Shown in pieces: positions 3,342 to 40,475 of a stretch of 64,000 bases of DNA. This stretch comes from Psilocybe cubensis. Taxonomy: Eukaryota. The notes beneath the pieces were generated by a model that did not search any database, was not told where the DNA came from, and was given only the letters and a program-made list of their open reading frames with translations. Both the position numbers and the translations under genes were made by a program. Positions within the stretch are counted from its first letter, which is position 1. Each line of letters begins with the position of its first letter. The stretch covers positions 1,736,001-1,800,000 of the forward strand of contig CM039007.1 of NCBI GenBank assembly GCA_017499595.2, in the 5' to 3' direction.

Positions 3342-6300
3342 TCAATCATCATTCTCCTGCTCCATAGCCTCCCTCTCCAACTTCTTCTTCATCGCGCTCA
3401 CTATATCACCACCAACAACAACAACATCCAAAATATGGAGCGAGAGACAAGGAAAGAAAGGAAGAAATGAAAGAAGAAAGAAAGAAGCTAGTCAGAACCT
3501 CCTCTAATCCATCAACGATAAAAATATAAAAAAAAAAAACGCACCATCTCTTGAAATTTGACCAGACGACATCCATCCATCGGGGTATGCACTCACAATC
3601 TACAAAAATCAAAAACCAAAAATGCGTCGATAGACGAGCAAAAAAGGCAGAAAAGCAAGGACAAACAAATGAAAAGAAACGTATATTAGCTCCCCATCAC
3701 AACACACAACAAACCAAAGCATTAGCATTAGCACGCACCTTTTGGTACAACACCTTCCTCAACCCCTGATCGCTGATCTGCACCACGGATCCTTCCAACG
3801 AGCTACGAGAAATGCGTGTGAGTACAAGGCTGAGGCGGGAAGCAAGGCGCGGGAAAGGAGGGTAAAGGGGGGAAAGGAGGGGACATGTAAAGACAAGAAA
3901 AGAAAAGGGAAGCGAAGGCCATCCCTAAACCTCACACCCCCAAATCCAAAATCCAAACAAACAACGAAGAAGTCATAATTGCACGGGAACGAGGGAGTGG
4001 GTCCCCATCCGCGTGTGAAGTTCCAAGTAAGAGGGTGAACGCACACACAAGCGCCAAGTATACCTGATATGGCAATCGAATGACCATATGTGGGAAGAAA
4101 GAAAGAAAGCTTCGAGATCTACACTCCCCCAAGACTAAGAGCGGGTGCCAAGTGCCAAGTGCCAAGGACGTAGTACGGAAACTGGTGACATGTCCAAAAC
4201 CACGCCCATCCATCCATCCCATACGACATACAACATAAAAAAGAAAACGAAAACGAAAACGAAAACAGAACCAGAACCAGAACCAGAAAAAAAAAGAAAA
4301 ACAAGGGAAAGAGGAAAGACTCACTTCTTCTCATTCTCCAACCGACAACACTCATTGCTCAACAACACAAGCTCCCAGACAATATTCTTCATCTGCTCCG
4401 TCATCCTATACCGTCTCGCAGGCGGATTATTCCCATGCTCTCTCTCCTTCCCCTCCTTCCCTTCCCCTTTCTCTTTATCCTTATCCTTATCCTTCTCTTT
4501 ATCTTTATCTTTATCTTTATCCTTATCCTCCTGTGTCCCAGAAGGCCCATCAACATCCATCTCCTCCGTCCCATGCCTCGTCGGCGCCTCACTCCCCGTT
4601 CCCGTCCCTTCATGTCCACCTGCAGCGCCGCCGCCGCCAGCAGCCTTGATCTTCTCCTGTCTTTTATCCCATGCGACGACGTTGCGCTCCCACTCCTCCT
4701 TGGCGCGCTCGAACCCGTCGTCTGCGAGCTGCTTGAGCTGCGCGAGGAGTGTGTCTTGTCGCTCGGTGAGCAGTGCGAGGTGGTCGGAGAATACAGTGCG
4801 TTTAATGAGTTTCTGTATTGATAAAGGGTGAGATGAGATGTGATCAATAGCAGATGAGCGAACAGATAGAATGAATAAGAGAGAATAAAACAACACGGAT
4901 ATGAACATGAACATGAAAAACTCACCGTCATCGTAAACTTATTATACGGAAACAAATTCGGCATCAACGAAAAAAAATCATCATCATACTCATCCAGCTT
5001 AATCGCCAACACCGCCATGCGCGCGAGCGGCGCCTTGAGCGCCGGCGGGAACTTGCCCTTATTCTCCCAGTTCTCCTTCTTAATCAGCTCGCGCATCTCC
5101 TTGAGCGCGGCTTGCAGAGACGGGTGGAAGAGCGTCTCGTCCACAACGCGTTTACGCTTGCCTGTCTCTGTGATAAAGCTATTCTGCCGCTTACGCTTCT
5201 GGCCCCCGCCTGCGAGGGGAGGTGGGAGGAGTGTGTGTGGCGGCACGTCCGGTGCGCCGCTTGTGGATATTGATGTCGAAGCAGTAGCAGCGGATTTGGC
5301 GCCGTTGACGCTGGTGGAAGTGGATCCTACGGGTGCGGAGATGGATGTGGATGCGGATGTGCCGGGTTCGGCGTCGATGGTGATAGGTGCCTCGCGGGTG
5401 CCCTCGATGCTCTTCCCCTTGTGCGCCGTGGTGGGGAGTGCCGCGGACAGCGAAGGCGGCAGGCCCGTTGCGAACGAAATCTTTTTCGATTTGGGCTTCT
5501 TTGGTGTCCTGCACAGGCGACGGTAGCGTGTGAGGGAGATGAGTACGATGAGCATGTGGATGGGGGTAGAAAGGAGTAGAGGAATAGACGCACTTGTCTT
5601 TGAGCAGCGCGACTTCGCCGCTGGAGACGTAGAACCCCTGTTGCTTCGTCTGCGCGAAGAACTGGCGCTCGTCGACAGCGAGCTCCGAGTCGTCGATGAA
5701 CGGGTCCGTCGTGTCGTAGTACTCCGACGCCGGGTTCTTTTTCTATCACACACAAACACACAGCGCACCATAAGCCCAACGAACAGAGTCGCAACAACGA
5801 CAACGCACCTTTTTCTTCTTCTTCGTCTTCCCCGGTCCGGCACTCGCACTCGCCCCGCCCTCATCCTCCTCGTCATCCTCATCGCTCGAGTCGGGCACAG
5901 CGCGCTTCACCACCACAGGCGGCGTCGGCGGGCGCTGCCCCGTTTCCTTCGCCTGGCGCCGGATATCGACCTCGTAGTTACTCGGGCCGCCGAGACGGAT
6001 CTCGAGGCGGATCGTGCGGAGGGGGATGACGGGCGGGGGCGGGGACGGCGATGGGGAGCGCGGGCGCGGGGGCTTTGTCGAGCGTGGTTTCGCGGACGAC
6101 GCGGGTTTCAGTGTTGTTGTGGAGGCGGAGGCGGAGGGTGAGGGGGCGGCAGCGGAGGACGGGGGTTTGGTGAGTGGTGACGAGGGCGTGGGGGCGGCGG
6201 AGTCGGCGGCGGCGGTGGGGGTTGTGGCTGGGGGAGGAGCGGAAGAGGAGGCGGAGGAGGGCGGGCCATGGGAGGGGCCGGGAGAGTCGGGGGAGGGAGA

Positions 6301-6429
6301 GTGGACGAGGAGCGGGATGGAGACGCTGGAGGGCTGAGCGTGGACGACAGGGACGGTGGGGACGGCGAAGGAGGAGCGGCGGCTTGTGGCGGGGGACGGC
6401 GAGGGCCGCATCTCGACATCGGAGGCCAT
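3342..6429 (-). CDS. HPC2: HIR histone chaperone complex subunit Hpc2 / ubinuclein-like protein (multi-exon)
   Basis: Spliced exon ~5743-5594 encodes SEYYDTTDPFIDDSELAVDERQFFAQTKQQGFYV (HUN/HRD motif). Later exons encode ubinuclein middle-domain-like sequence (KFPPALK...LFPYNKFTMTKLIKR; LRKVLYQK; AYPDGWMSSGQISR). Final exon SAMKKKLEREAMEQENDD, stop 3342-3344. Confidence 0.85.
4474..4527. repeat. Coding hexamer microsatellite (TTATCC/TTATCT)n giving an Asp-Lys run in Hpc2
   Basis: Tandem repeat visible directly; translates as DKDKDKDKDKEKDKDKDK on the minus strand. Confidence 0.85.
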
Positions 6430-8810
6430 GGTGTGCTAGGTGGAAGGGATGGGGACTGGGACGATGGTGATGATGATGATGTGGAAGAATGCCGAATCGG
6501 GAGAGGGCAGCCAACATGTTTGAACAACTCTCATCCCTTCTTTCCTCCGCGGAATTCTTCCCCCGCAAATTTTTTTTCTCTCTTTGGGCCGTGCCATCCT
6601 TGCCAAATGGTGACGCGACAACGCACGGACACACAACATCTCAGACATTCTCCGCGTGGGAACCCTCAAACCCACTCTCATTGGCTCGGCCTTGCCCGTG
6701 GAAGACACATACCCCAATCAACAAAATGGATCATTGAGCTCTTTATCCTGCGTCTTGTTGTCGAGGCCCAGAGAAAGCCTTCTCAAAGTTGAACCGGTCA
6801 ATAACGGTGTACATTCAGCCTAGTCCATGCTCCAGTCATAACTATGTCTATCTGCACGACTTATCCTAACTAACTCATCTCATCTCAGCAACATAGTATT
6901 GACCATGGCAGTTCAGTCTCCGAGCTAGCGTTCAGCATAGTTTCAGAGGTCTCGCTATTGGATTGCATGTGCTGAGTTGCTCGACATCGCTGCTGGATGA
7001 TGGTTGACCCAGATATCTGTAAGTATATGCGCATATATGCCATCTATTTCTCACTGTTATAGTTTCTTGTCAGGACATAGCGGTACACACACCATCTTGT
7101 GCTGAATTTAAGTACAGTGACGACCTAAAACTCTGGAACAATGTAATTCAAGGACCTCTACTCACTTGGTTTGTCCTCGCGGTACTGTCGATACCACATC
7201 ACAGAATACATTCTCACAGATATCATTTAACCTTCTGTGACGCGCACGACAGAGGACCCTCGCGTCTCCTCAGACATCATATATCAAGGTCCTGTCAAGA
7301 CTGTTTATGGTGGCACACCTCGGGTTCGATGGCGAGGCAATTTCGCCTTTCACATCAATCTCACGCAAACTCATTTGTAGTTGTGTCCCTCTTCCTAGCC
7401 CTACTGATACTGTGCCTCGATACTTCTCTTTATCCAGTCCTCCGACTCGTATGGTCATAGACTCTTCGTTTCGAAGCCTCCTAGAAACGAGGGAACTGAG
7501 AGGAACGAAAAACAACTTGATGGCCCGAAACACGCGCTTTTGATCAGAAGTGCATTAAAGAAGTTTTTCTCAAGATTCAATGGGAGTTCTAATGAACATC
7601 GTAAGTGGAAGTTATCTTGCTCGCTCTCAAGTTATGCGCAGATAAGGATGGTTGCTCCCTCATCGTTGAGTGAGGAAACGTCCTGCACGTTTCGGCTCAC
7701 CCGTTGCAATTTACATTTGCGCAGACAGGATATCCAGGAAGAATTAATTCATGCATTGGGCTACAATAAAACGTTTGCTCACTCCAATTGGAAACCATGT
7801 CGGCATCAGAATGATCAATGAGAGCTCAGTTAAATCCCAAACACCAACAACTACATACGAAACTCTGACTCTCACACAAAACATCCTTTCAAAGTACACA
7901 CTCAGGAATCAGCAAATTTCAATGTACCCATGCGCCAACAAAGATCTTTCGCGGGACAACCGACAAAGATAGACACGCATCTATAAGAATATCTCAGCTC
8001 ATTGTATTAAGCATACGGTACTCAGGCTGGGTAGGTGCTACACCATGTGGAGGGTGGGAAGGGGGGGATCAATCAGATGGTTGCTTTCGGGCGTCTAAAA
8101 ATGATTGCCCTCCGTCTTGCGATCATGTTTACATCTGCCCATCCATCCACACTGCGACGATGATCATTGATCCTCTCTGGACTGTTGAATTTGTACTCAC
8201 GTCAATGAGTGAATGATGTTTGTAATAGCAGAAAGGTGCGGGGCTGGATGGATATTTGTTCTTTACGACATTTCTAAACGGTGAACCGGCAGATGAGAAT
8301 GACTTTTAATGTTAAGAAATACGACAATGTCAGCTCAAACTACACTCATTCGTCCCATCCCACTTCACACCACCACACGCATGTTTCCGGCACATCATCT
8401 CCAAAAAAGGTGGCTTGACAACACCACATGCACCCCCAGAAACCTCCAACTGTTCTCCGTATCCTATGAACGATCTCATTCTCAACACAGAATGCATCAC
8501 AACAAGTTGGTTGGCACAACTTCGTATCCAGTCGGGGGGGGTAAACGCTATATCTACACCCAGAACTAGAAGTCGTTGCTTGTTAAGATTCCCCACAGAA
8601 CTGCGGCGGCGTTAATTAACTGAACTGTATAGATACTTAGCGCCGAGCGCCATTGACAACGTTTAATTTTCGACTCGCAGTTCAGCGCTAATCTGATCCC
8701 TAGAATAACCGATAACCCGGCGTTGTGACTACCGAGGTACGTTGTTTGCGTGGTTTTTTAGAGTATAGGCTTGTGTACTTACGGTTATTATGCTGCGTGT
8801 TAGTGATAAC

Positions 8811-28729: not shown

Positions 28730-30313
28730 ATGGACCATGTGGGACCTACACCCATCGATTTATACCTTGGGTAGGTGAAAAGTGTTTTTTTGTGTAATTT
28801 TCTCATTCAGCTTCGCCAGACCACAATTGATCGGAACTTTGATCAACACAGTTTTGTACACAGTCGAGGTTTTGTTGGCAGCCACCTACTTTCGAAGCCC
28901 CAGAGGCAAGAGAGAACGAAGAGGGATTGCATTAGCTGTAATCTTCAATCTGGCAGTGGATACAGTAGGGAGTACTGTTGTGTGTATAAGCGCGTATACG
29001 GTACGTTTGTCTTCTGATTATGATGCTGCTGGAGTTTCGTTTGAGAGTGATCCACTCGACAGTTCTACGTTACATTCTGGGGTTGGTCTTCTTATCTTCA
29101 CATTTCTTTCTCTGACCATTTCCGATGCTTAGGCAATGCTAATAGCATATCGAATACACACTGGAGTCTTATCGTCAATATCATTACGAACGCAATTACA
29201 GCGTTCGTCGTTCAAGGCTTTTTGACATACCGTTTCTGGAAATTGTCGGTATCGAAAACGAATGAGGCCGTTCATTCGCCACGACGCTTTGCTTATCTAC
29301 CCACAAATGCAGCCATATGCATCACGATTGTCATTTTCTGCTTGATGCTCTTTGGGGTTTGTCCACTCAGTGCTAAGATTTGTTATCCTCTATTAACATA
29401 CGTCACCGCTTGTAGTGGGGAGGGGATATTCATCTAGCAATTAGGGCATCGCAGCCTCGACGCAGACCGGAAGACCGTCTGCGTGATACTCGCGACGTTA
29501 TGTACGTGCAAAAATCAGTAGGGTCAACACACCTTACTTATCCAACCATCAGTATGGCTCTTGCGGGGACTGCGGCGGCCGATCTTGCTATCACAGGGGC
29601 CCTCATATGGACGTTGTATGGAACAAAAACGTTCAATAAAATAACCCAAAGGTTTCTTTTCTATTTTGAATTTATTTCTTTATATATAGCTGATTACAGA
29701 GTTATAGTGTTGTCAGAAAAATCATGACAATGGCAATAATAACAGGATCTATAACTTCCGCTGCGGCCATTACCATCTTCATAACCTTTCTGGTACTACC
29801 CCTATCCAGAGGCAAGTATATCTCGTACCATTGACATTGATGATATACTCAATCCGATTTCAGTTCCAACCTGTTTTTCTTTATTCTTGGGGAGAGTATA
29901 TGCGCTGACCATGCTTTACGCTTTGCTCTATCGTGATGCTATCTCTCAAGGCTTAAGAAACGTAATAATCGATAGTGATACACTCCAACCCACCGTCGAA
30001 TCTGGTCAGCGTAGAAGAGGTAAGCCTCGGTAGCCATTGCTACAATAAATTGGATATTTAAGCAGCTATAGTGGGGCTCCCATACACGTCTTCACAGATA
30101 ACTGACGAAATTCTCTTTGCGCGGCCGAAGGTGTGTACACATCAGTAAGATGTTGCAGAAGGTTCTAATGCTGTACGTCTAATATAGAATTTTATTTCTT
30201 CAACACCGTCTCATTCTGTACCTGATTTGCATCATGAACTGGTGCCGCCAAGATCATTTTCACGCCAAAGTGATGCATGTAATACTCATAATCCTACTCA
30301 GAGTAATAAGTAG
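28730..30313 (+). CDS. Seven-TM integral membrane protein, DUF6534-like (multi-exon)
   Basis: ATG 28730. Exons encode seven hydrophobic helices with family-typical motifs GPQLIGTLINTVLY, VQGFLTYRFWKLS, AADLAITGALIWTL, ITGSITSAAA, LGRVYALTMLYALLYR. Last exon ends at TAG 30311-30313. Internal exon edges approximate. Confidence 0.7.
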
Positions 30314-30562
30314 CGCCCGGGGCCCGTTAGATTGTTAATATATAAATTCACCCCACCCTCGGTCAAAGTTTCGCTGGATTACACAGACATATAACTGATA
30401 TCTTGAGTATCATGTAGCCCACTAAATTGACGGTGGGAACTAGCGTCACTTCACAAAATATTATTTTCTATAGGGTTCTTCAAGATTTTCGGGGTACGTC
30501 GCGTCGTAGAGGGTGTAGCTTGTAAAGGTGGTTTATATCTGGTTTCGTGTAATACTATTCGT

Positions 30563-32512
30563 TTATTGTGATACACTTTCCGAGGTGACAGAAATAGTTC
30601 CTCCGTTCGAGCCTTCCCCATTCATGGTGACGCCATTCTGTCCGTTGGCAGTGATAGTCACCTTTGTCGGGCTCCCTGTACCAGCGAGGCCCGTCGATGT
30701 ATCTGGTTCTGTTGTGGTGGTACCTGATGGTACGGAGATCGTCCCTCCATTCGCTCCATTCCCGTTGTAACTCACGCCGCCATTATGTCCAGTCACAAAA
30801 ATCGGCTGGGCAGTAGGAGGCTTGTTCCCGTAAGTCGTGCTGGACAATTTTCCTGATCCGGAGTACAACAATGGTTGATTTCCATACCACCCCCAGAGGA
30901 GATTCCTAATGTCTGGACTACCTTGGAGCTTTTGAAGAGAGATAGAATCTTCGCGGCGGTTTATCGAGATCCGCCCTATGGCTGTCCGTTTGCACATTTA
31001 ATACCAATCATTAATCTTTTTGTCCCATACTTAGAAGTCTTGGACTAAGTCTTCCGATAAGTATATCTTATGGTGTCCGAAGATAGAAAAATGGCTTCCA
31101 ATCATAAAGATCCCATATCCACACATTTGTATATTGTAACCTTAGGTACAACTTTGAGTACCATACATATAGTTTTGGAGCCCACATATATATATTAGAA
31201 TCCCTTACATAGAAAACTCATGCCCTTTCATACATTTTTTGCTCCCCCACATATATCTACTGGTTCCAGCAATCTTAGATTTTACCTGTCGTCGTCACGA
31301 AGATATACAGGCGATTTTCGGCATTTTTTTATGCCGAGGCAAGCTTGCCTTCGTGCGAATTCGGCAAATATCGGCAATCAGCCAGACGAATCACAGCACA
31401 TTGCTGTTTTTTCACCTTGACACTGGCAGAGTAAGCACTGACAAAGTTTCAAATACTAACCGATTGTGAATGCTACAATTTAAGCTGAATACAGCATTAT
31501 TTCGTGTCTTTTCTGAGCCAAGCGCTGTGATGACAGCTAGTAGCGGATGTGTTAAGCTTGGTTAAGGTTAAATACACCTGAAAATGAGGTTATAGGTAGT
31601 CAACCTATTCAGTGTCAGCTATACGCACAGGTTTGGTGTTTTTTTTGTCAATCATGAAATTTTAAATCCATATTGTGAACTTAAAACACTCGCCTAGCTG
31701 CTCCACGAGTAGCTATCCACCCCAAAGCGGGGTACCAACATAATTCCCACACGGATTCGGCAGTGACGGCACGCACGATGGTCATCTCAACGACTGTATA
31801 TCTTCGGAAAAAATGTTAGATATATGGGGAGGTGGTTTCAAAGTATGGTATAAGATTTCCTATGTAGGGGATAGATGCATATATGTCCGTACCTTTCATT
31901 AAAGCTGAAGGTCCTGTAAATACAATGATTGGGATGATTTCCTCTATCTTCGGAAGCTAGTTCTCTGTGATCGGGACACCAATATATATAATCGGCATTG
32001 TGTAAAAATGTCCTTTATATGTATGGGACAAAAAGATTAATGATTGGTATTAAATGTGCAAACGGACAGCCATACCGCCCTCCATTCGCACCGTTCCCGT
32101 ATTGATTATACCCACCGTTGGCGCCGTATGCAGAAATTGGACCATTTGGTGGAGTATATGAGTTGTATATAGGGAAAAGGAATCCCGCTCCACGCCTACC
32201 CACAGAAATACTTCCGCCATTGGCGCCATTACCATATGCATTTTGACCACCGTTAGCGCCATTTGCGTAGATAGAGCTTCCTCCTCCTGCGTAATTAGCT
32301 ATACCAATGTATCCGCCGTTGGCACCGTCGCCACCGTAGTTGTAACCTCCATTGGCTCCAATTGCTGTAATTGGCCCATTCGTAGGTGTAAGGGGAGTCG
32401 GGTACCAGAAGTCAGTCCCTCGATGTTCCAAGACGGGACCAGAAATTGGCGAAGCAAAACTTCCGCCGTGGAAAATTGTAAGTATCAACGTCGCCTTGAT
32501 GAAAGACTGCAT
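30563..32512 (-). pseudogene. Secreted Kex2-processed repeat precursor 1 (GANGG-repeat family), interrupted by a transposon
   Basis: 5' part 32512-32075 (signal peptide MQSFIKATLILTIFHGGSFA, GANGG modules, RR site) and 3' part 30970-30563 join in frame (NGGRISINRRED) when 30977-32074 plus one TSD copy is removed, giving a 281-aa protein. 5'UTR intron 32574-32516; TATATAAA at 32634-32627. Confidence 0.85.
30977..32074. mobile_element. Non-autonomous DNA transposon (MITE-like), 1098 bp, 54-bp perfect TIRs, 6-bp TSD CCGCCC
   Basis: TATGGCTGTCCGTTTGCACATTTAATACCAATCATTAATCTTTTTGTCCCATAC at 30977-31030 and its exact reverse complement at 32021-32074. CCGCCC at 30971-30976 and 32075-32080. AT-rich interior with no transposase ORF. 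Confidence 0.95.
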
Positions 32513-34905
32513 CTTCTGCCAAAATATTTAAATCAATGCTGGTGTATGTACGTAGTTTTCAAAACTAAGCTCACTTGTTTTACGATTATGGGGTTGTGGA
32601 ATGAATATCCTGAAACCCCATTTGAGTTTATATACCCAGAATCCGGCCATATGTGCAACCACCTTCTAAATTCTCAGTTGTATTAACCCTATAGGAATAC
32701 AAGTTGAAGCGTTAGCTTGAATAATGGTTAGCTGAAATCGATTGAAATAAAATTCTTAGGTACCCACTAGGTGAAAGTAGTCGACGTAAATTAGGGAGCT
32801 AGATGACTCACAATCTTGTGGCTTTTAGAAAGGCGGTTCGTGAAGGTCGATAGGAAATGGAATAACCTTCAGCGGTACTTGTAATCATGACGCATTGGTT
32901 GTGTCAAACCGTAGTATAGGTAGTAAAGAATGAGCCGTCAATAATAAAGCATATTCCAACCTCCTGCACTTCTTCTGGCGGCTGTGGGGATGTGTGTTGG
33001 TCTGAGTAGGTTGGTGTGTGTGAGTTTGACAGCGTTTGTAGATTCGGAATGTGCCGAAATTCCTTTCCCCATCAGCCCCCGTCTCTGTAAGTACATGTTG
33101 AAGTGCCTTTTACGGTGACATCATGACGTGAAACTGACGCGATCAGCTGCAACTTAAGCGGAAGTAACATGCTTTAAATGAAAGGACATGGAGTCCTCTA
33201 GAAGTGAATCGGCCCTAGTTCCGATGTGTCGTTGGCATTTCATAGTACCGAACCTTCAGCTTCAAAGCCTCAGTCTATGTGGGCCCTAGAATGACCGTCG
33301 TTGAAGCTGCTAATGCCTGATGGATGATCCTCAATTCACTACACTGCCTAATACACGTTGCTCACTAGCGGGTCTGTACTAAGTATGCAATGTACTACAG
33401 GGCAAGTTGTAATAAACGGTGTTCAACATCAAACTCTTACTCCTTTGTGTAAAGTAATGGATTATCGTAGGTAGCAATGTATACAATGCCTCAGTAAACC
33501 CAGTCACTATCACTGCACTTCCGTCGTAGTGGAGGGCAATAACAAAAAGCTTATGACCTAGACTCAAGGGGGATGTGGAGGGTAACGAGACTTCAGTTTC
33601 TACTTGTAACCTATTCTGCATTAGCAGTTTCACGAAATGAATGGTAGATGCGCAGCAATTCTCATCCAGCCCGGCTTTGCATCGGCCAAACGTTCGAAAC
33701 TCGACAAGTGGGGCGACTTCTCCATCCGGTAAGCAATAACGTTTTCTAGGCAAAGATGTTTCCTGCCATTACAATGCCGTTACAAACTTCACCCGTGATA
33801 GGATTTTGCTTTCGCCTATGAATGTGTTCAGGGAGTACTTCCCCGGCCGTGCATCAGAGAAGATTCGTGCGGGTCGAAGAGATGATATCGTAGTAACATT
33901 AAATAGACCAAGTGTCTATTCATCGGTGCCGTTAAACCTTTGAAAATCGAGAATTGGTCAAGTTAATGAGGACTTAGTACCTTAGAAGCACCTTGGAAGC
34001 CTCCTGGTTCCGAGGAAAGATTCTCCTGGATTCTCCAATCCATATTTTGGACGTCAATCGGCAATCACCGGGTATGGGTTTGCCTGCTTTTTTAGTTTGC
34101 CAAGGGGCTAACCAAACAGTCAATTTTCCAAGTCCCGACTCATATCACAGAAACACCGTCTTCAATGATTTATTGTAGTGCAGCAAAGTTATCTTTTCTC
34201 AGTCTCTTATTTACTGGCCTATCGGATACCAGTACCTCAATCTGTCGCTCAATATTTACCAGCGTTATCGACGCGTAGTAGCCGTGCAAAGTTTTTCTCT
34301 CTGACGGGGCTTTGCTTACACGCAAACCTCTAGCACATCCAGCGGGAGATACCACAAATGAACCCCTTTCAAACGCCGGGAAAACCCAGCGACTAATTAG
34401 TCTTAGGTGAGAACATTTTAACTCGTCCATGAGCAGGTTAGAGCAGGTTAGAGGTTCAAAGTCCTTCAGAATTTAATGATTCAGCTCGGATGTAGGAAGT
34501 GTCAACTGTCATGAAGTGTGCGGTTCTCGTTGAAAAAAAGAAACCCAAGCCAAAATCAAAATGGTGAACAATGCAGTATGCGGCTATGTTTTTTATCAGA
34601 ACACATGATATATTCTCTTTGACATTTTGCTCTTAGTTTACCTTAGATATTCGCTATATTCAAGATACTGTTCTTCATAATCCTAAACATAATTTTGCTT
34701 TAACCATTTGCTCTTAGTATCTCTTAGCTTTTCATCTAATTCAATGCATATTCACTGAATGGGACTGGTAGCCCATGGAATGACCCTTCCTTTTTAACAT
34801 ATCATGCTAATATTACCGAACACTAGCATCCGTTCAGAATGCAAAGTTGGTGAGCAATAAATTCAACTAAACAGTTTTGCGGCCATCTCCCGCTGAAACT
34901 CGGGG

Positions 34906-34913
34906 TATTTAAA
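34906..34913 (+). promoter_or_regulatory. TATA-like box of precursor 2
   Basis: TATTTAAA ~55 nt upstream of the 5'UTR intron (34969-35038). The same box and downstream TTTCTTCAGTGAACTC are shared with precursor 3. Confidence 0.55.
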
Positions 34914-35055
34914 GGACCTCAAAGTCTTGTGTTTCTTCAGTGAACTCTTACAAGGCCTCACAACACAAGTAAGCCCTGGAAAACCATTTCCCATTTTTTT
35001 TTAGTAAATATCCCGCTAACTATCAGACTTTAACAAAGGCAATACAACCCAAAAC

Positions 35056-35871
35056 ATGCAATCGTTTGTCAAAGCTGCAGTTGCAATTGCCTTCCTCAGC
35101 GGTGGAAGTTTTGCTCTTCCCACTCAAACCAACACGGTAAACAGACGCGAAAATGACTTCTTCTTCCCAATCTGGATCCCCCCAGCTCCTGCTAATGGTC
35201 CCATTTATGCCAGCGGTGCAAATGGAGGTTACAACTATGGTGGAAGTGGCGCTAATGGCGGCAGCATCTCAATTAGTAGGCGGGAGACCGAAAGCAAGCA
35301 AAAGGACAATACCTTTTTTCCGCTCTTCCTAGGGTGGAATCAACCTCCTCCTAATGGAGCAATTACTGCAGTGGGTGCCAACGGCGGAACCAACATATAC
35401 GGAGACGGCGCCAATGGCGGGTCGATCTCCATCAACAAGCGCAAGGATGATTTTCTCTTCCCCATCTGGTTCCCTCCGCGTCCTACTGTCAATGGCCCCA
35501 TTACCGCTAGCGGCGCCAATGGAGGCTACAACTATAATGGAGACGGTGCCAATGGCGGTTCAATCTCCATCAACAAGCGAGGGGAAGATTTTTTCTTCCC
35601 AATCTGGCTCCCTCCTCCTCCTCCTGCCAATGGCCCCATTACTGCTAATGGCGCCAATGGAGGCTTCAACTATAACGGAAACGGTGCTAATGGTGGAAGT
35701 ATTTCGATTGGCAAGCGAGAGACCGAGAGTGAGAATAAAGATGGTATTCTTTTCCCACTCTTTTGGTGGAATCAGCCTCCCGCCAACGGAGCCATTACCG
35801 CAGAGGGCGCAAATGGCGGCACTAACATCAACGGAAACGGTGCGAACGGTGGAAGAATCTCTATCGGATAA
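35056..35871 (+). CDS. Secreted Kex2-processed repeat precursor 2 (5 GANGG-pair units)
   Basis: Signal peptide MQSFVKAAVAIAFLSGGSFA-LP. Five units of ~45-53 aa delimited by RR/KR, each with an aromatic FFPIW/FPLFxW head and a GxIxAxGANGGxNxxGxGANGGxISI module. Confidence 0.92.
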   Translation: MQSFVKAAVAIAFLSGGSFALPTQTNTVNRRENDFFFPIWIPPAPANGPIYASGANGGYNYGGSGANGGSISISRRETESKQKDNTFFPLFLGWNQPPPNGAITAVGANGGTNIYGDGANGGSISINKRKDDFLFPIWFPPRPTVNGPITASGANGGYNYNGDGANGGSISINKRGEDFFFPIWLPPPPPANGPITANGANGGFNYNGNGANGGSISIGKRETESENKDGILFPLFWWNQPPANGAITAEGANGGTNINGNGANGGRISIG

Positions 35872-36288
35872 TAATATTGGATGCGTGCAATTCATACCTG
35901 GAGGATATTACAAAAATATGCAGGAATAGCTTTATATACGTGTTGTTGAATCTGAAGAAACACAAAAAACAAAATTTAGCCATATTTTTTGATCTGAAAT
36001 TATGATCTACCTGATAAATTATCTTACTGCTCCCATGTTGGATTGTAACGTCCATCTAAGTCAGTCGGATATAGCATTCAAACAAAACAAGTGTGATGCT
36101 ATTTTCCATCAAAATGCTTGAAAAAATGCTATGTGGAGAGAAAGTTGGAATAAGATGGTACTTGCTACTCACAAAAATGACATCAATTGTGTATGAAATA
36201 TTGGAGAACAAGTAAGTGGGCTCAAGAATGTTTAAACGGTAATTGTTTTACCCAGGACGTAAAAAAGATCTCTATCAACTGCCAATGC

Positions 36289-37554
36289 TTACCCTTCACA
36301 AATGTTGAGTTCAAATACCCTGCAACGAACAAACTCTGCGAAGCTATCGCGAAGCTCATAGTCTAAATTCAAGTGGGACTCGAAAGGCAACGAAGACTCA
36401 AGTCCCAATGGTATAGTGGACCTGAGCCTAAGCGTTCTCAGCTTCCCAGATAGATAATCCTCCCTTGTTCGCAAAATCATAATCTCCAACAGTGTCTCCA
36501 GGTGGTCTTTTGTAAGTGGTCCTTCATATGTGAATACTCTGAGGTGCGGCACTAGAACAAGACGATGACTATACCCAGCAGGATAGAGTGCCTTGAAAAA
36601 CAAATCTCCAGATGTTATAGGTGCTTGATCTGAGCGATTGTTAATTTCCAATACTTCCAATACAGTCTGGGTGGAAATGGGATTAATGAGGGCCGTTATT
36701 CCGTCTCCAATTGCGAAATTGAGGTAGAGATGTGTGAGCTCGCATTTTGATCGCTCAAAAAACTTGTGAAGATATTTCCCCCCGCCATGAATGATGAACT
36801 ACTATCCGTGCGACTGAAAACCTCAATTTGCAGACGTTTTAGAGAAGGAGGATTGAGGCTTAATAACATATTAACGCAGGGTACCACATACTGAAACGCG
36901 ACGTGAAGTGTGTGAAGTCTGGGGGAGTTTGACAGGGAAATGCATTCCATGCCTATTCAGTGGGAATATGTTCCCTAAATGCACCTTTGTTAGATTTGGA
37001 AATGAAAGGAGAATGAGACGAGAATTAAATTCTCCGTCCAACAAGGATAGGGAAGTGGGACCAGAAAGGTTTACAGTGTTGGCTAGTCCTTTTAAGGGCA
37101 GAAGGTCACACCAATGGTTAGGTAGTCGAAGGCACAATGAGCGCCATTGCGGCCTGTGTTGTATAAGCACATCCATGACGTGGATAGGTTTGCAGCACTC
37201 TTCATCGCCCAACTTTTCAAGGAAGATGTCCAGATCCCGGCCCTTGGCACGACTTATCTATTCGTGAACAAGTATATGTTTCTCCTCACATTTTCCGTTT
37301 CCTAGATGTATGTCTATGGATTCCCACAGCTCAGAGTTGGACCAAGCTATTTCTCTCCAGCCTTTACAGACCCCACCGAGCGTAAATGGATGCAGCTGCC
37401 TTCGCCTGTGGACGTTTCCAGGGATGACCTCGCATGCCTCAGAGAAGATTAGAGCCATGATTTCGGGTGGTAAGGATATAGCCGTAGGAGCATAACTGCT
37501 CTGAGTGTGAGGATGGCTTGTGTCTAACGATATTATCGATGCGATTGTGGACAT
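36289..37554 (-). pseudogene. Degenerate agaricomycete-type F-box protein gene
   Basis: ISLPPEIMALIF...PFTLGGVCKGWREIAWSNSELWESI is F-box-like. In-frame TAG at 37258-37260 where Trp is expected (E*ISRAKG), then frame changes near ~36950 and ~36690. Confidence 0.75.
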
Positions 37555-38882
37555 TGAGCCTTGCTGGTTGGTTGTAGCCTCGAGTTTGATCACAACCAGG
37601 TTTTTAAATTGTTTGTTCTCAAGGTTCTAACCAAATAACTACTTTCTCGATGCGTGAATGTAAACACCATATTTACCAAACCATGCTGGCAATAACACAG
37701 AAAAGATGCATGCTCATTCTGCAAATACGTGCCTCATGTATACACAAACCCCAATTCTTCCGCTCGATATCTAATTCTCCCTATGTCTGTACGCACGTCT
37801 GGAAGGGAATTTAAAGCCACCAGTCTACCGAACCCCGTCGTTCCTAAATTTCCCTAGAAAGTCATCCTCTCTGATAGTACTTCATTTATACATTGGACAA
37901 CTTCACCAAAATCTTTACCGCGTTTGACACGAGATATAACCAACAACCCCCTTCGGAACACAGGAAACCCCAACGATCGATCGCTCGAAGACGAGAACAA
38001 CTCCATCGGACGCATGGGCAGGTTCAGTAGGAGGTTTGAAGTTCTTGGGTCCGATTTGGATGATTCGGCTTGGATGGAAGAAATGTCAACCGTAATGAAG
38101 CGTGAGGTTCTTATTGAAAAGGAGAAACCCAAGCCAAAGTCGAAAAAGTAGACGACGCGGTACGCCCTTACCAACACAAATAAGACAATCACCTTGACAT
38201 TTTGCTCTTGGTCTATATTATCCATTCACCTAATGCAACATGTCGTGTTTCACAATGCTATCGGTTACCCTGTCAGAATCTCATTAAACACATTAGGACA
38301 TTCAATTGCAGGTTTTAACTGCACTCTTTCCGGAGGTACTTGGTTGAAAATGCTAAATGAACCATATCTCATGCCTCATTCAGAAATCCATCGTGAGGTT
38401 TCTGCTGTCATTTTCATTGGTCATTGGTGTCGTCATTACTGTAGGGCAAAATAGGGTCAGTGGTCATTTACACTACTTGACGTCGATCCAAAGTGCTCAA
38501 TTAGCGCTGTTATTTCATTGACCATGTTCACCAGTAGATGTTCAATCGCGATACATATCTACTCCACACTTGATTTCTGCAATGCTTCAACCAATTTCAG
38601 GTTCATGGTTGCCCCGACGATGGCAATTGCTTGGTGCTATCTGTATGCTACTCACACCTTGAAAATACAACGTTGACCTCACATGCACCCAGTCTCATCA
38701 CACATGTAATCGTTCTGGCTTTTGGTAGGAGATACTAACGAGACCAAAAGTACTAAGATTCGTCCGAATGTAAACTTGGTGCTAATACATTCGATGTGAC
38801 AGATATGGCAGTCTGCTTCTACCTCTGGGCGGAAGTACCAACCAAATCAGTTGAACACCTTCGTGGTCACCTCGACTTTAGA

Positions 38883-38890
38883 TATTTAAA
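38883..38890 (+). promoter_or_regulatory. TATA-like box of precursor 3
   Basis: TATTTAAA upstream of the 5'UTR intron 38945-39007, at a position equivalent to precursor 2. Confidence 0.55.
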
Positions 38891-39025
38891 TGAATGGTAT
38901 GCTCTTCAATTTCTTCAGTGAACTCCTCCAAGACCTCACAACAAGTAAGTCTTAGAAACCACTCACCACTTAATTATAAATGTTCTACTAATCAATCGTT
39001 CTCAAAGGTAATCCAGTACAACAAA

Positions 39026-40189
39026 ATGCAATCTTTCGTCAAAGCTGCAGTCGTACTCGCCTTTCTCAGCAGTGGAAGCTTCGCTCTTCCCACTGAAAAC
39101 ACTGCTGAAGCGCAAAAGGAGTCCAAGTTTTGGTACCCAGTTTCCGCTCCCTCTCGAGGGTCAGTGACGGCGACGGGCGCTAATGGCGGATATAACTACT
39201 ACGGCAACGGTGCCAATGGGGGTTATATCGGGGTCGGTGGAATGCCAGGCGCCGATGTATATGCGAACGGTGCCAATGGTGGTGAAAACGGCTATGGAAA
39301 TGGTGCCAACGGAGGAAGCATCTCGGTCAACAGACGCGAGGAAGATTTCTTCTTCCCAATCTGGCGCCCTGTAGAACCTGCTAATGGCCCTATTTCTGCA
39401 AGCGGTGCGAATGGGGGTTACAACTACGGTGGCAACGGCGCCAACGGAGGAAGCATATCCATCAACAGGCGCGAGGACGACTTCTTCTTCCCAATCTGGC
39501 GCCCTGCACCTCCTCGCAACGGCGCCATTTCTGCCAGCGGCGCCAATGGCGGTGAAAATTACTACGGTGACGGTGCAAACGGAGGAAGCATCGCGGTCAA
39601 CAGACGCGAGGACGATTTCTTCTTCCCAATCTGGCGCCCTGCGCCTCCTCGCAACGGACCCATTTCCGCCAACGGTGCAAATGGAGGCTACAACTACGGG
39701 GGAGATGGCGCCAATGGCGGCAGTATCTCAATTGCCCAAAGGGACACTGAAAGCAAACAAGAAGAAAATTTCTTTATCCCATTCTTCGGATGGGGTCGAC
39801 CTTCGGCCAACGGTGCGATAACTGCAGAGGGCGCTAATGGTGGAACCAACTACTACGGTGACGGTGCCAACGGAGGAAGCATCGCGGTCAACAGGCGCGA
39901 GGACGATTTCTTCTTCCCAATCTGGCGCCCTGCACCCCCTCGCAACGGCCCTATCTCTGCTAGTGGTGCAAATGGAGGGTTCAACTACAATGGAGACGGC
40001 GCTAATGGCGGGAGTATCGCGATTGGCCAAAGGGACACTGAAAGCAAACAGGAGGGTGATTTCTTCATCCCTTTCTTCGGATGGGGTCGACCTTCGGCCA
40101 ACGGTGCGGTTACTGCTGAGGGCGCTAATGGTGGAACCAACTATTACGGCGACGGCGCTAACGGTGGAAGTATCTCAGTCGGACAGTAA
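39026..40189 (+). CDS. Secreted Kex2-processed repeat precursor 3 (8 GANGG-pair modules, 387 aa)
   Basis: Likely start is MQSFVK at 39026 after the 5'UTR intron. Signal peptide, then units such as EDDFFFPIWRPAPPRNGPISANGANGGYNYGGDGANGGSISI delimited by NRR or QR. Confidence 0.92.
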   Translation: MQSFVKAAVVLAFLSSGSFALPTENTAEAQKESKFWYPVSAPSRGSVTATGANGGYNYYGNGANGGYIGVGGMPGADVYANGANGGENGYGNGANGGSISVNRREEDFFFPIWRPVEPANGPISASGANGGYNYGGNGANGGSISINRREDDFFFPIWRPAPPRNGAISASGANGGENYYGDGANGGSIAVNRREDDFFFPIWRPAPPRNGPISANGANGGYNYGGDGANGGSISIAQRDTESKQEENFFIPFFGWGRPSANGAITAEGANGGTNYYGDGANGGSIAVNRREDDFFFPIWRPAPPRNGPISASGANGGFNYNGDGANGGSIAIGQRDTESKQEGDFFIPFFGWGRPSANGAVTAEGANGGTNYYGDGANGGSISVGQ

Positions 40190-40475
40190 TGAGATGAAAT
40201 GATTCAAGCAATCTGAAGTGCATGGATATTAGAGAATGATGTAGGGTTATGTAAATTCTTTTATGTGATGTAAGGTCTAAAGGAAAAAATCAATATCAAG
40301 CCAAATGTGCTTTAAATGCATGGTCTCTACGGCACATCATCTTGCTGCCTGAATATATTGGAGTAGTAAGCGTATAACACGTCAACATCGAAAATCATTA
40401 CTACAGGATCTGTTAGGTGATTCTCAAACAAGACGAATCGAAGACGTTGACAGGTCCTCCATTGCAACTCTTACT

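Follow-up and report, generated by a model that had tools for sequence, protein, structure and literature searches.

Kex2-processed repeat proteins (KEPs) form an architectural class and not a homology family, with 838 types distinguished, plus 2560 proteins that stand alone (Umemura, 2020; PMC7329392). In the in-silico definition set out in the part of Le Marquer et al. (2019; PMC6339444) drawn on here, a KEP carries a signal peptide, gives at least four fragments after cutting at KR or RR, and contains at least three similar repeats which make up at least 15% of its length. KEPs have been catalogued by the thousands, very few of them with a known product or function, and only a handful of KEP-derived peptides has been detected in Agaricomycetes; in the sections of PMC9769878 considered, these are short (7-19 residues), linear or minimally modified, and unrelated to the repeat unit described below. 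The Ustilago repellent precursor Rep1, as described in the corresponding parts of PMC3133707, has a signal peptide and 12 repeats, processing at its Kex2 sites leads to 10 peptides of 34-53 residues and one 229-residue product, and the peptides form amphipathic amyloid fibrils in the hyphal wall and on hyphae. Here, we describe a cluster of three paralogous genes (g1, g2, and g3) in a stretch of 64,000 nucleotides of the Psilocybe cubensis nuclear genome (contig CM039007.1, positions 1,736,001 to 1,800,000), hereafter the window, from whose first letter all coordinates are counted. The gene cluster and its very small family are real, and they add to the KEP class a new member whose foldable unit is unusual and predicted to stack.

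From the listing of open reading frames (ORFs; standard code), the three paralogs were placed at 32512-30563 (-) for g1, 35056-35871 (+) for g2, and 39026-40189 (+) for g3, and a tblastn search with g2 returned g1, g2, and g3 only, with no further locus of the family in the window. Both sources agree with a preliminary description of this DNA on the position of the paralogs, and the common leader that it had claimed is present in all three genes, each of which begins with MQSF[VI]KA...GGSFA/SGSFA; the leader is common to 13 of 13 aligned family members. The signal peptide was called by reading the n, h, and c regions by eye together with the modelled N-terminal helix, and in g2 the predicted signal peptide consists of M-Q-S-F-V-K, a hydrophobic stretch, and S-F-A before L-P, with small residues at -3 and -1; the helix spans residues 2-14 and 2-15 in the two AlphaFold2 models. 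The g2 gene (35056..35871, +) is a complete ORF of 271 aa, identical to the stored protein P0001, in which the predicted signal peptide (residues 1-20) and an 11-residue pro-piece ending in RR are followed by five units (35149-35283, 35284-35442, 35443-35580, 35581-35718, and 35719-35868, +) which fill residues 32-271 of 271. The g3 gene (39026..40189, +) is an ORF of 387 aa whose frame is open from 38894, with the leader-bearing Met at 39026; its N-terminal part after the predicted signal peptide is an uncut double GANGG module, and its six units (39338-39472, 39473-39607, 39608-39742, 39743-39898, 39899-40033, and 40034-40186, +) span residues 105-387 of 387. A strain polymorphism in g3, an in-frame deletion of 3 nt at 39482, is common to two of the public sequencing runs introduced below (X3 and X4).

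At the DNA level, Tandem Repeats Finder detected three periodicities, one of 138 nt with 2.2 copies and 85% matches, one of 135 nt with 3.1 copies and 79%, and one of 291 nt with 2.1 copies and 88%. When the 11 units of g2 and g3 were aligned, 17 columns were invariant, the mean column identity was 70%, and the consensus was EDDFFFPIWxxPxPPANGPITAxGANGGxNYxGDGANGGSISIxxR, close to the one given in the preliminary description. Each unit is laid out as an acidic spacer, a FFFPIW/proline head, and a GANGG...GANGG-SISI module. Two classes of unit occur in both g2 and g3: class A of 45-46 residues with an E/D-D-D-FFFPIW head, and class B of 50-53 residues with a D/E-TESKQ spacer and a FFxPxFxW head. 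Identity of the units to the first unit ranges from 56 to 84%. The invariant columns lie mostly in the GANGG module, which is conserved as much as the head, and the head is the most hydrophobic part of the unit and is itself highly conserved (F35 and P38 are invariant). Neither g2 nor g3 contains a cysteine or an N-x-S/T sequon. Among pairs of the five 45-residue units, the ratio of non-synonymous to synonymous divergence (dN/dS) was 0.05-0.17 in 9 of 10 pairs, with dS of 0.6-2.9 and dN of 0.07-0.20, and in the tenth pair dS was saturated. These ratios indicate that the units are copies of some age and that strong purifying selection maintains their peptide sequence, that of the head as well.

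AlphaFold2 models of g2 (mean predicted local distance difference test score, pLDDT, 64.7; predicted template modelling score, pTM, 0.61) and g3 (62.5 and 0.59) were built from the 13-sequence alignment. In both, each GANGG module was modelled as three short strands, and the modules were stacked as one beta-solenoid, five in g2 and eight in g3. Ten-residue blocks of the modules reached pLDDT 74-88 (g2) and 71-80 (g3), and the pro-piece, spacers, and heads were mostly below 50, the cut sites with them, so that the cut sites are predicted to be exposed or disordered. In fold comparisons with an aligner independent of Foldseek, the best match of g2 was the Escherichia coli CsgA fibril (8enq_A; Z 9.5, root-mean-square deviation (rmsd) 8.6, 108 of 111 residues aligned), the next reaching Z 6.9, and the best match of g3 was the Pontibacter CsgA (8c50_A; Z 14.6, rmsd 7.6, 190 aligned), with which beta-helices of SufBD type tie (Z 13.7-14.2, rmsd 3.6-4.3). 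Because values of Z below about 13 in this aligner may, for repeats, reflect only a common arrangement, the likeness to curli is not read as homology; the models suggest a beta-solenoid of stacked rungs which is curli-like in composition and size. The unit profile matched 0 sequences of the Protein Data Bank (PDB) at E <= 1, and the ESM Atlas gave no usable match by features and only structure rows with a template modelling score of at most 0.43. A complex prediction for four copies of a 43-residue unit, with the alignment unused, returned a score of 0.02 and a mark of 0.32, which is no verdict on self-assembly either way.

The sequence that follows a module is I/V-x-I/V, two further residues, and then Arg. 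By regular expression, the unit boundaries in the window comprise 10 dibasic, 2 QR, and 3 without Arg (in double modules or the g1 tail), in addition to 3 chain ends, and with the g2 pro-piece included 11 of the 13 Arg boundaries are dibasic (RR or KR). All 13 sites have Ile or Val at P4, 10 have an acidic residue at P1', and 12 have one at P1' or P2'. Kex2 is known to prefer an aliphatic residue at P4. Across the 13 aligned family members, the columns of the boundary Arg vary little or not at all, and the same expression counted, in ten homologues, 15 dibasic boundaries, 12 with a single Arg (two of them inside double modules), 7 without Arg, and 5 ends. According to the sections of Bader et al. 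(PMC2515848) drawn on here, Asp/Glu and small residues are over-represented at P1', P2', and P4' of cleaved Kex2 sites, and non-basic P2 residues can be processed. Since the dibasic sites lie in segments that the models expose, have favourable flanks, and share an Arg conserved family-wide, we lean slightly towards the units being processed by a kexin.

Cutting after [KR]R would release from g2 a 31-residue signal and pro-piece and units of 45, 53, 46, 46, and 50 residues (6 fragments), and from g3 a 104-residue N-terminal piece followed by 45, 45, 97, and 97 residues (5 fragments), each 97-residue piece being two units joined by QR. The preliminary description had units of 45-53 residues delimited by RR or KR in all three genes. 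This is accurate for g2, where 5 of 5 Arg boundaries are dibasic, but not for g3, which has four RR and two QR boundaries and an uncut double module in first place, nor for g1. The KEP architecture that it had proposed likewise stands, within the definition of PMC6339444 quoted above, for g2 (6 fragments, five units) and g3 (5 fragments, six units and the double module), both with a predicted signal peptide, but not for g1, which yields only 3 fragments when read across the empty site of an insertion described below.

Taken together, we give roughly an even chance to a reading in which the genes encode secreted, cysteine-free, Gly/Asn-rich polyproteins which are cut by a kexin and whose rungs self-assemble in the manner of the Rep1 repellents. 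The predicted signal peptide would be removed first, and in the late secretory pathway a kexin of Kex2 type would cut g2 and g3 C-terminally of the Arg which comes after each GANGG module, at sites with I/V at P4, K/R as the usual P2, R as P1, and acidic residues behind the cut. The released peptides would be of about 43-51 residues, each with an acidic tip that is short, an aromatic/proline head of hydrophobic character (FFFPIWxPxPP or FFxPxFxW), and a single beta-solenoid rung of three strands (ITAxGANGG-xNY-GxGANGG-SISI), and the rungs would stack like the repeats of curli CsgA into a self-assembling extracellular or wall-surface material. Among the roles conceivable for such peptides, self-assembly at the surface would be the most likely one, given that stacking of the rungs is predicted; taken by itself, a repellent-like self-assembling role is rather unlikely.

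Several observations weigh against cutting and assembly, and many of them favour an alternative that we hold to be possible and somewhat unlikely, namely that the proteins are intact or merely nicked secreted or wall beta-solenoids, whose heads are surface loops (e.g., for wall polysaccharide binding) and whose Arg residues and acidic spacers serve structure or solubility rather than cleavage. In the models, the precursor is able to fold without being cut, the five modules of g2 and the eight of g3 each making up one unbroken solenoid (pTM 0.61 and 0.59), and the solved structures matched by fold are adhesins, S-layer proteins, and curli subunits. The underlying alignment has only 13 sequences, the CsgA matches have a high rmsd (7.6-8.6 Å), and Foldseek against the PDB gave no match at E <= 0.001, its weak rows being mostly beta-solenoid proteins. 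In the homologues, 10 boundaries before the acidic spacer are monobasic (TR, AR, SR, QR, and GR) against 15 dibasic, one homologue (P0008) has single-Arg boundaries only and no dibasic one, and two g3 boundaries are QR. The Kex2 cleavage of g2 and g3, and with it the release of about a dozen peptides proposed in the preliminary description, is a prediction from site context and models, and one third of the predicted Kex2 substrates stayed uncut in the in vitro test reported in the cited part of PMC2515848, where accessibility was decisive. Furthermore, the Galerina protein P0013 and the C-terminal tails of g1 and of a homologue with its layout (P0010) have contiguous modules without heads and without dibasic sites; because such relatives exist, the module appears to be useful without cutting. 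Nevertheless, the window's 13 Arg boundaries include 11 which are RR or KR and which lie in segments modelled as disordered (pLDDT < 50) with favourable P4 and P1'/P2' residues, and sites so exposed would be expected to be cut in the Golgi unless this were selected against. Mere loops, moreover, would not be expected to be conserved like the core, whereas F35 and P38 of the head are invariant.

The hydrophobicity and high conservation of the head could instead point to precursors of small bioactive or signalling peptides, perhaps akin to RiPPs (ribosomally synthesised peptides with post-translational modification), with the trimmed head (FFFPIWxPxPP) active in defence, in signalling, or as a toxin and the GANGG module as its carrier. 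Linear and minimally modified peptides derived from KEPs have been found in other Agaricomycetes, as reported in the part of PMC9769878 used here, and a KEP type with W plus P is listed for Galerina and Psilocybe (Umemura, 2020; PMC7329392). We nevertheless consider this improbable, as the module is as conserved as the head and holds most of the 17 invariant columns, no second cleavage site lies between head and module, no XA/XP (Ste13) signature follows the dibasic sites, and 40 scanned ORFs of the window gave no match to DUF3328/UstYa, a tyrosinase, a cytochrome P450, a methyltransferase, or a prolyl oligopeptidase. Precursors of alpha-factor-like mating or developmental pheromones would share the general design (signal peptide, pro-piece, and RR/KR-separated repeats) and nothing more specific; with units of 45-53 residues against the 9-24 given for ascomycete alpha pheromones in the part of PMC6339444 drawn on here, no Ste13 XA/XP among the post-cut residues (EN, ET, KD, GE, EE, ED, DT, and GA), and a Gly/Asn module predicted to form a solenoid, the chance of this being the function is very slight. 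Three further candidates were rejected. An amatoxin/MSDIN-like precursor was set aside on account of the predicted secretion signal that the g1-g3 precursors carry, and an antifreeze protein was dropped, the matches being only to generic solenoids. Hydrophobins carry eight conserved cysteines, and a hydrophobin is ruled out by the 0 cysteines of g2 and g3.

The g1 gene does not conform to the simple repeat array that the preliminary description had made of it, as it is interrupted by a 1104-bp insertion, has only two dibasic sites (both RR), and ends in a headless uncut tail. Its 5' coding part (32075..32512, -) encodes the predicted signal peptide and a double module, followed by an RR site and a single unit of head and module, and its 3' coding part (30563..30970, -) encodes a unit end with RR, then a divergent Ser/Thr/Pro-rich tail with two GANGG-like modules, the C-terminal ~130 residues having GANGG-like modules without aromatic heads and without dibasic sites. 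In the assembly, the ORF runs from 32512 to 32015 (-) and resumes at 30997-30563. The insertion (30971..32074) consists of a 1098-bp element (30977-32074) and a 6-bp duplicated target (CCGCCC), its terminal inverted repeats are 60 nt long and 97% complementary, and its longest ORF is of 98 aa; the element is a DNA transposon of non-autonomous type. When the empty site is read through (32075-32512 joined to 30563-30970), g1 is an open frame of 281 codons, and the protein P0010 from a Logan assembly has the same layout. The annotated model of g1, JR316_0010819 (stored protein P0011, Psilocybe cubensis, 277 aa), removes the transposon as an intron and is 4 residues shorter than the empty-site frame. 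We compared the locus with contigs of four public runs on 30300-40400, of which X1-X3 are DNA of even depth and X4 is patchy (15 of 30 bins) and RNA-like. One contig in each of X1, X2, X3, and X4 joins 30970 directly to 32075; as contigs of three DNA runs and one RNA-like run thus join the flanks without the transposon, the insertion is polymorphic or heterozygous. Read depth inside the insertion is many times that of the flanks, which implies that the transposon is multi-copy, and no second copy lies in the 64-kb window. Among the strain differences listed, at least 14 fall in g1 (32075-32512 and 30907); of these 14, 7 are synonymous and 7 change a residue when each is taken singly, and two lie in one codon.

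Upstream of the three genes, a TATA-like octamer is found at 34906..34913 (+, TATTTAAA) for g2, 38883..38890 (+, TATTTAAA) for g3, and 32627..32634 (-, TATATAAA) for g1. Sequence signals mark putative introns in the 5' untranslated region (5'UTR), of 70 nt in g2 (34969..35038, +; GTAAGC...CTAAC...AG), 63 nt in g3 (38945..39007, +; GTAAGT...CTAAT...AG), and 59 nt in g1 (32516..32574, -; GTGAGC...AG). The three upstream regions align over the octamer, a short leader ending in ...ACAAG, a GTAAG/GTGAG donor, and an AG acceptor which lies 6-19 nt before the ATG, with a CTAAC/CTAAT-like branch site in g2 and g3. The TATA box and 5'UTR intron that had been proposed as common to the three genes are conserved, as putative signals, before all three ATGs. 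Runs X2 and X3 carry 24 extra letters at 32533-32540, inside the putative g1 intron, as a further strain polymorphism.

Run X4 contains spliced RNA, because GT..AG joints which are absent from the DNA runs are seen in it in a gene at ~37.7-38.6 kb. Spliced-RNA-like contigs cover g1 (862 nt, depth 531, the contig ending at 32508, short of the putative intron) and g3 (three pieces within 39378-40108, depths 3595-6836), and contig depth in these runs cannot rank genes by expression. X4 leaves g2 uncovered, and likewise 38725-39061, where the g3 5'UTR and putative intron lie, and is uninformative on g2 expression and on 5'UTR splicing. The exact g3 protein, whether of 387 aa or of 431 aa from an upstream ATG, is not in a collection of 15 billion proteins; despite its cover by RNA-like contigs, g3 probably lacks an annotation in the public record or has another gene model there.

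We estimated the extent of the family by scoring 8000 candidates from 5.8 billion clusters, which gave 14 proteins at E <= 0.001: g1 and g2 of the window, two proteins of Galerina marginata (GALMADRAFT_881522 and, at a greater distance, GALMADRAFT_159649), eight from JGI environmental contigs of ~0.9-1.8 kb, and two from Logan assemblies. A search with a profile of 13 family members returned the same 14 proteins; it gave no family member of 679-2000 aa that could be a longer or fused form, which is weak evidence. In an exhaustive HMMER (phmmer) search over 1.84 billion representatives, 7 proteins reached E <= 0.001, 4 of them E <= 1e-30 and all within the 14, and scans of metagenome contigs with the family alignment and with the member P0003 gave no confirmed match. 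No Pfam family exceeded its cut-off in four ORF products of the window and five homologues; g2 matched no Pfam family at E <= 1, and g3 none over the curated cut-off. As judged from these searches, this is a small, lineage-restricted family of Psilocybe, Galerina, and environmental contigs. The member P0013 (GALMADRAFT_159649) has about six contiguous GANGG-type modules without aromatic heads and without dibasic sites between them, and may be an uncut ancestral form of the module. Another member, P0014 (JGI contig of 995 nt), has the family leader, a head, and a degenerate module, followed by a sub-threshold match to the Ribonuclease family PF00545 (E 7e-4, 20.5 bits against 24), and may be a fusion or a chimeric contig.

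In the searchable literature, no mention of GALMADRAFT_881522 or JR316_0010819 was found, the motif strings FFFPIW, FFFPLW, GANGGYNY, and GDGANGG did not occur in the papers searched, and GNGANGG occurred once in each of four papers of unrelated title (biogas acetogens and dairy-cattle breeding). The KEP surveys took in Psilocybe and Galerina genomes, and Table 2 of Umemura (2020; PMC7329392) lists a type #165 (P-3) with 7 KEPs from Fonsecaea, Cladophialophora, Galerina, Psilocybe, and Coprinellus, of which the text says 'W accompanied by P'. This type may or may not be the same family; it may be a different protein, because neither an ascomycete nor a Coprinellus relative of our family was found in the cluster, HMMER, and profile searches. 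It is therefore plausible, from a comparison with the texts of the KEP catalogues, that the repeat family is undescribed. The preliminary claim to this effect agrees with the lack of a Pfam family and the absence of the accessions and of nearly all motif strings from the literature, and type #165 is a candidate for an earlier record.

To characterize the neighbourhood, we compared 40 ORFs of the window with Pfam, namely 25 from among the 73 that reach 130 aa or more and, between 20 and 50 kb, 15 from among the 92 that are 75-129 aa long, a scan which split exons can escape. The matches were to ubinuclein, ankyrin, leucine-rich repeats (weak), F-box, DUF4470 (weak), SNF2, RNA polymerase Rpb2, and an ALO-type oxidase, and no DUF3328/UstYa, tyrosinase, cytochrome P450, methyltransferase, or prolyl oligopeptidase was found among the scanned ORFs, subject to the same escape of split exons. 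An F-box-like gene (36289-37626, -; PF12937, E 6.6e-7) lies between g2 and g3, and a separate spliced gene lies directly upstream of g3 (~37686-38600, +), with GT..AG joints 38333/38382 and 38454/38537 in X4.

Set against the described systems, g2 and g3 resemble KEPs, as presented in the parts of Le Marquer et al. (2019; PMC6339444) and Umemura (2020; PMC7329392) drawn on here, in their predicted signal peptide, in tandem near-identical units with KR or RR between them, and in repeats which fill most of the protein, and the unit size falls in the catalogue classes of 25-50 aa and over 51 aa. They differ in that the unit has no detectable relatives outside the 14-protein family and some boundaries are monobasic, and g1 falls short of the fragment number. 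With the precursors of dikaritins such as ustiloxins, they share the predicted signal peptide and putative Kex2-delimited repeats, but the units are of 45-53 residues against the tetrapeptide cores YAIG, YVIG, and YVIP of ustiloxins and phomopsin, and the 40 ORFs covered, in a scan which is not exhaustive, include neither a DUF3328 nor a tyrosinase neighbour; a DUF3328 neighbour accompanies only 6.1% of basidiomycete KEPs (PMC7329392). The likeness to CsgA, which is one of predicted models, lies in Gly/Asn-rich strand-turn-strand repeats stacked as rungs. CsgA, however, is one uncut chain with a dedicated bacterial export, whereas the rungs here are split by heads and spacers of 19-27 residues with protease sites, and at the sequence level no Pfam curlin repeat was matched at E <= 1, nor any PDB sequence by the unit profile at the same threshold. 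A eukaryotic counterpart of curli made from a cut polyprotein, in which rungs of ~45 residues would polymerise as a functional amyloid with one face lined by heads, is a more daring proposal, which we regard as unlikely. If it were true, Psilocybe and Galerina would have a coat of hyphae or fruit bodies independent of hydrophobins and separate in origin from the Ustilago repellents, and the family would go back to an uncut, contiguous solenoid resembling P0013, whose rungs came to be separated by inserted heads and dibasic sites.

The proposal of released and assembling units is concrete in that the unit is long enough for the predicted fold, the fold is a stackable rung as in bacterial functional amyloids, and RNA-like contigs from one run lie on at least two of the three genes. 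Without release of the units, the genes would still represent a new small family of secreted beta-solenoid proteins. By analogy, the design is closest to that of the Ustilago Rep1 repellents, which it resembles in the unit size of 45-53 residues, the large uncut tail in g1, the lack of cysteines in g2 and g3, and modules predicted to stack in a cross-beta, solenoid-like manner. It differs from Rep1 in the aromatic/proline head, for which no counterpart is stated in the parts of PMC3133707 drawn on here, and at the sequence level no homology to Rep1 appeared, the phmmer scan of 1.84 billion representatives having returned only family members. In essence, should the units be released and assemble, the locus would represent a second, independent strategy of Rep1 type, and the first in mushroom-forming fungi, in a species of biotechnological interest.

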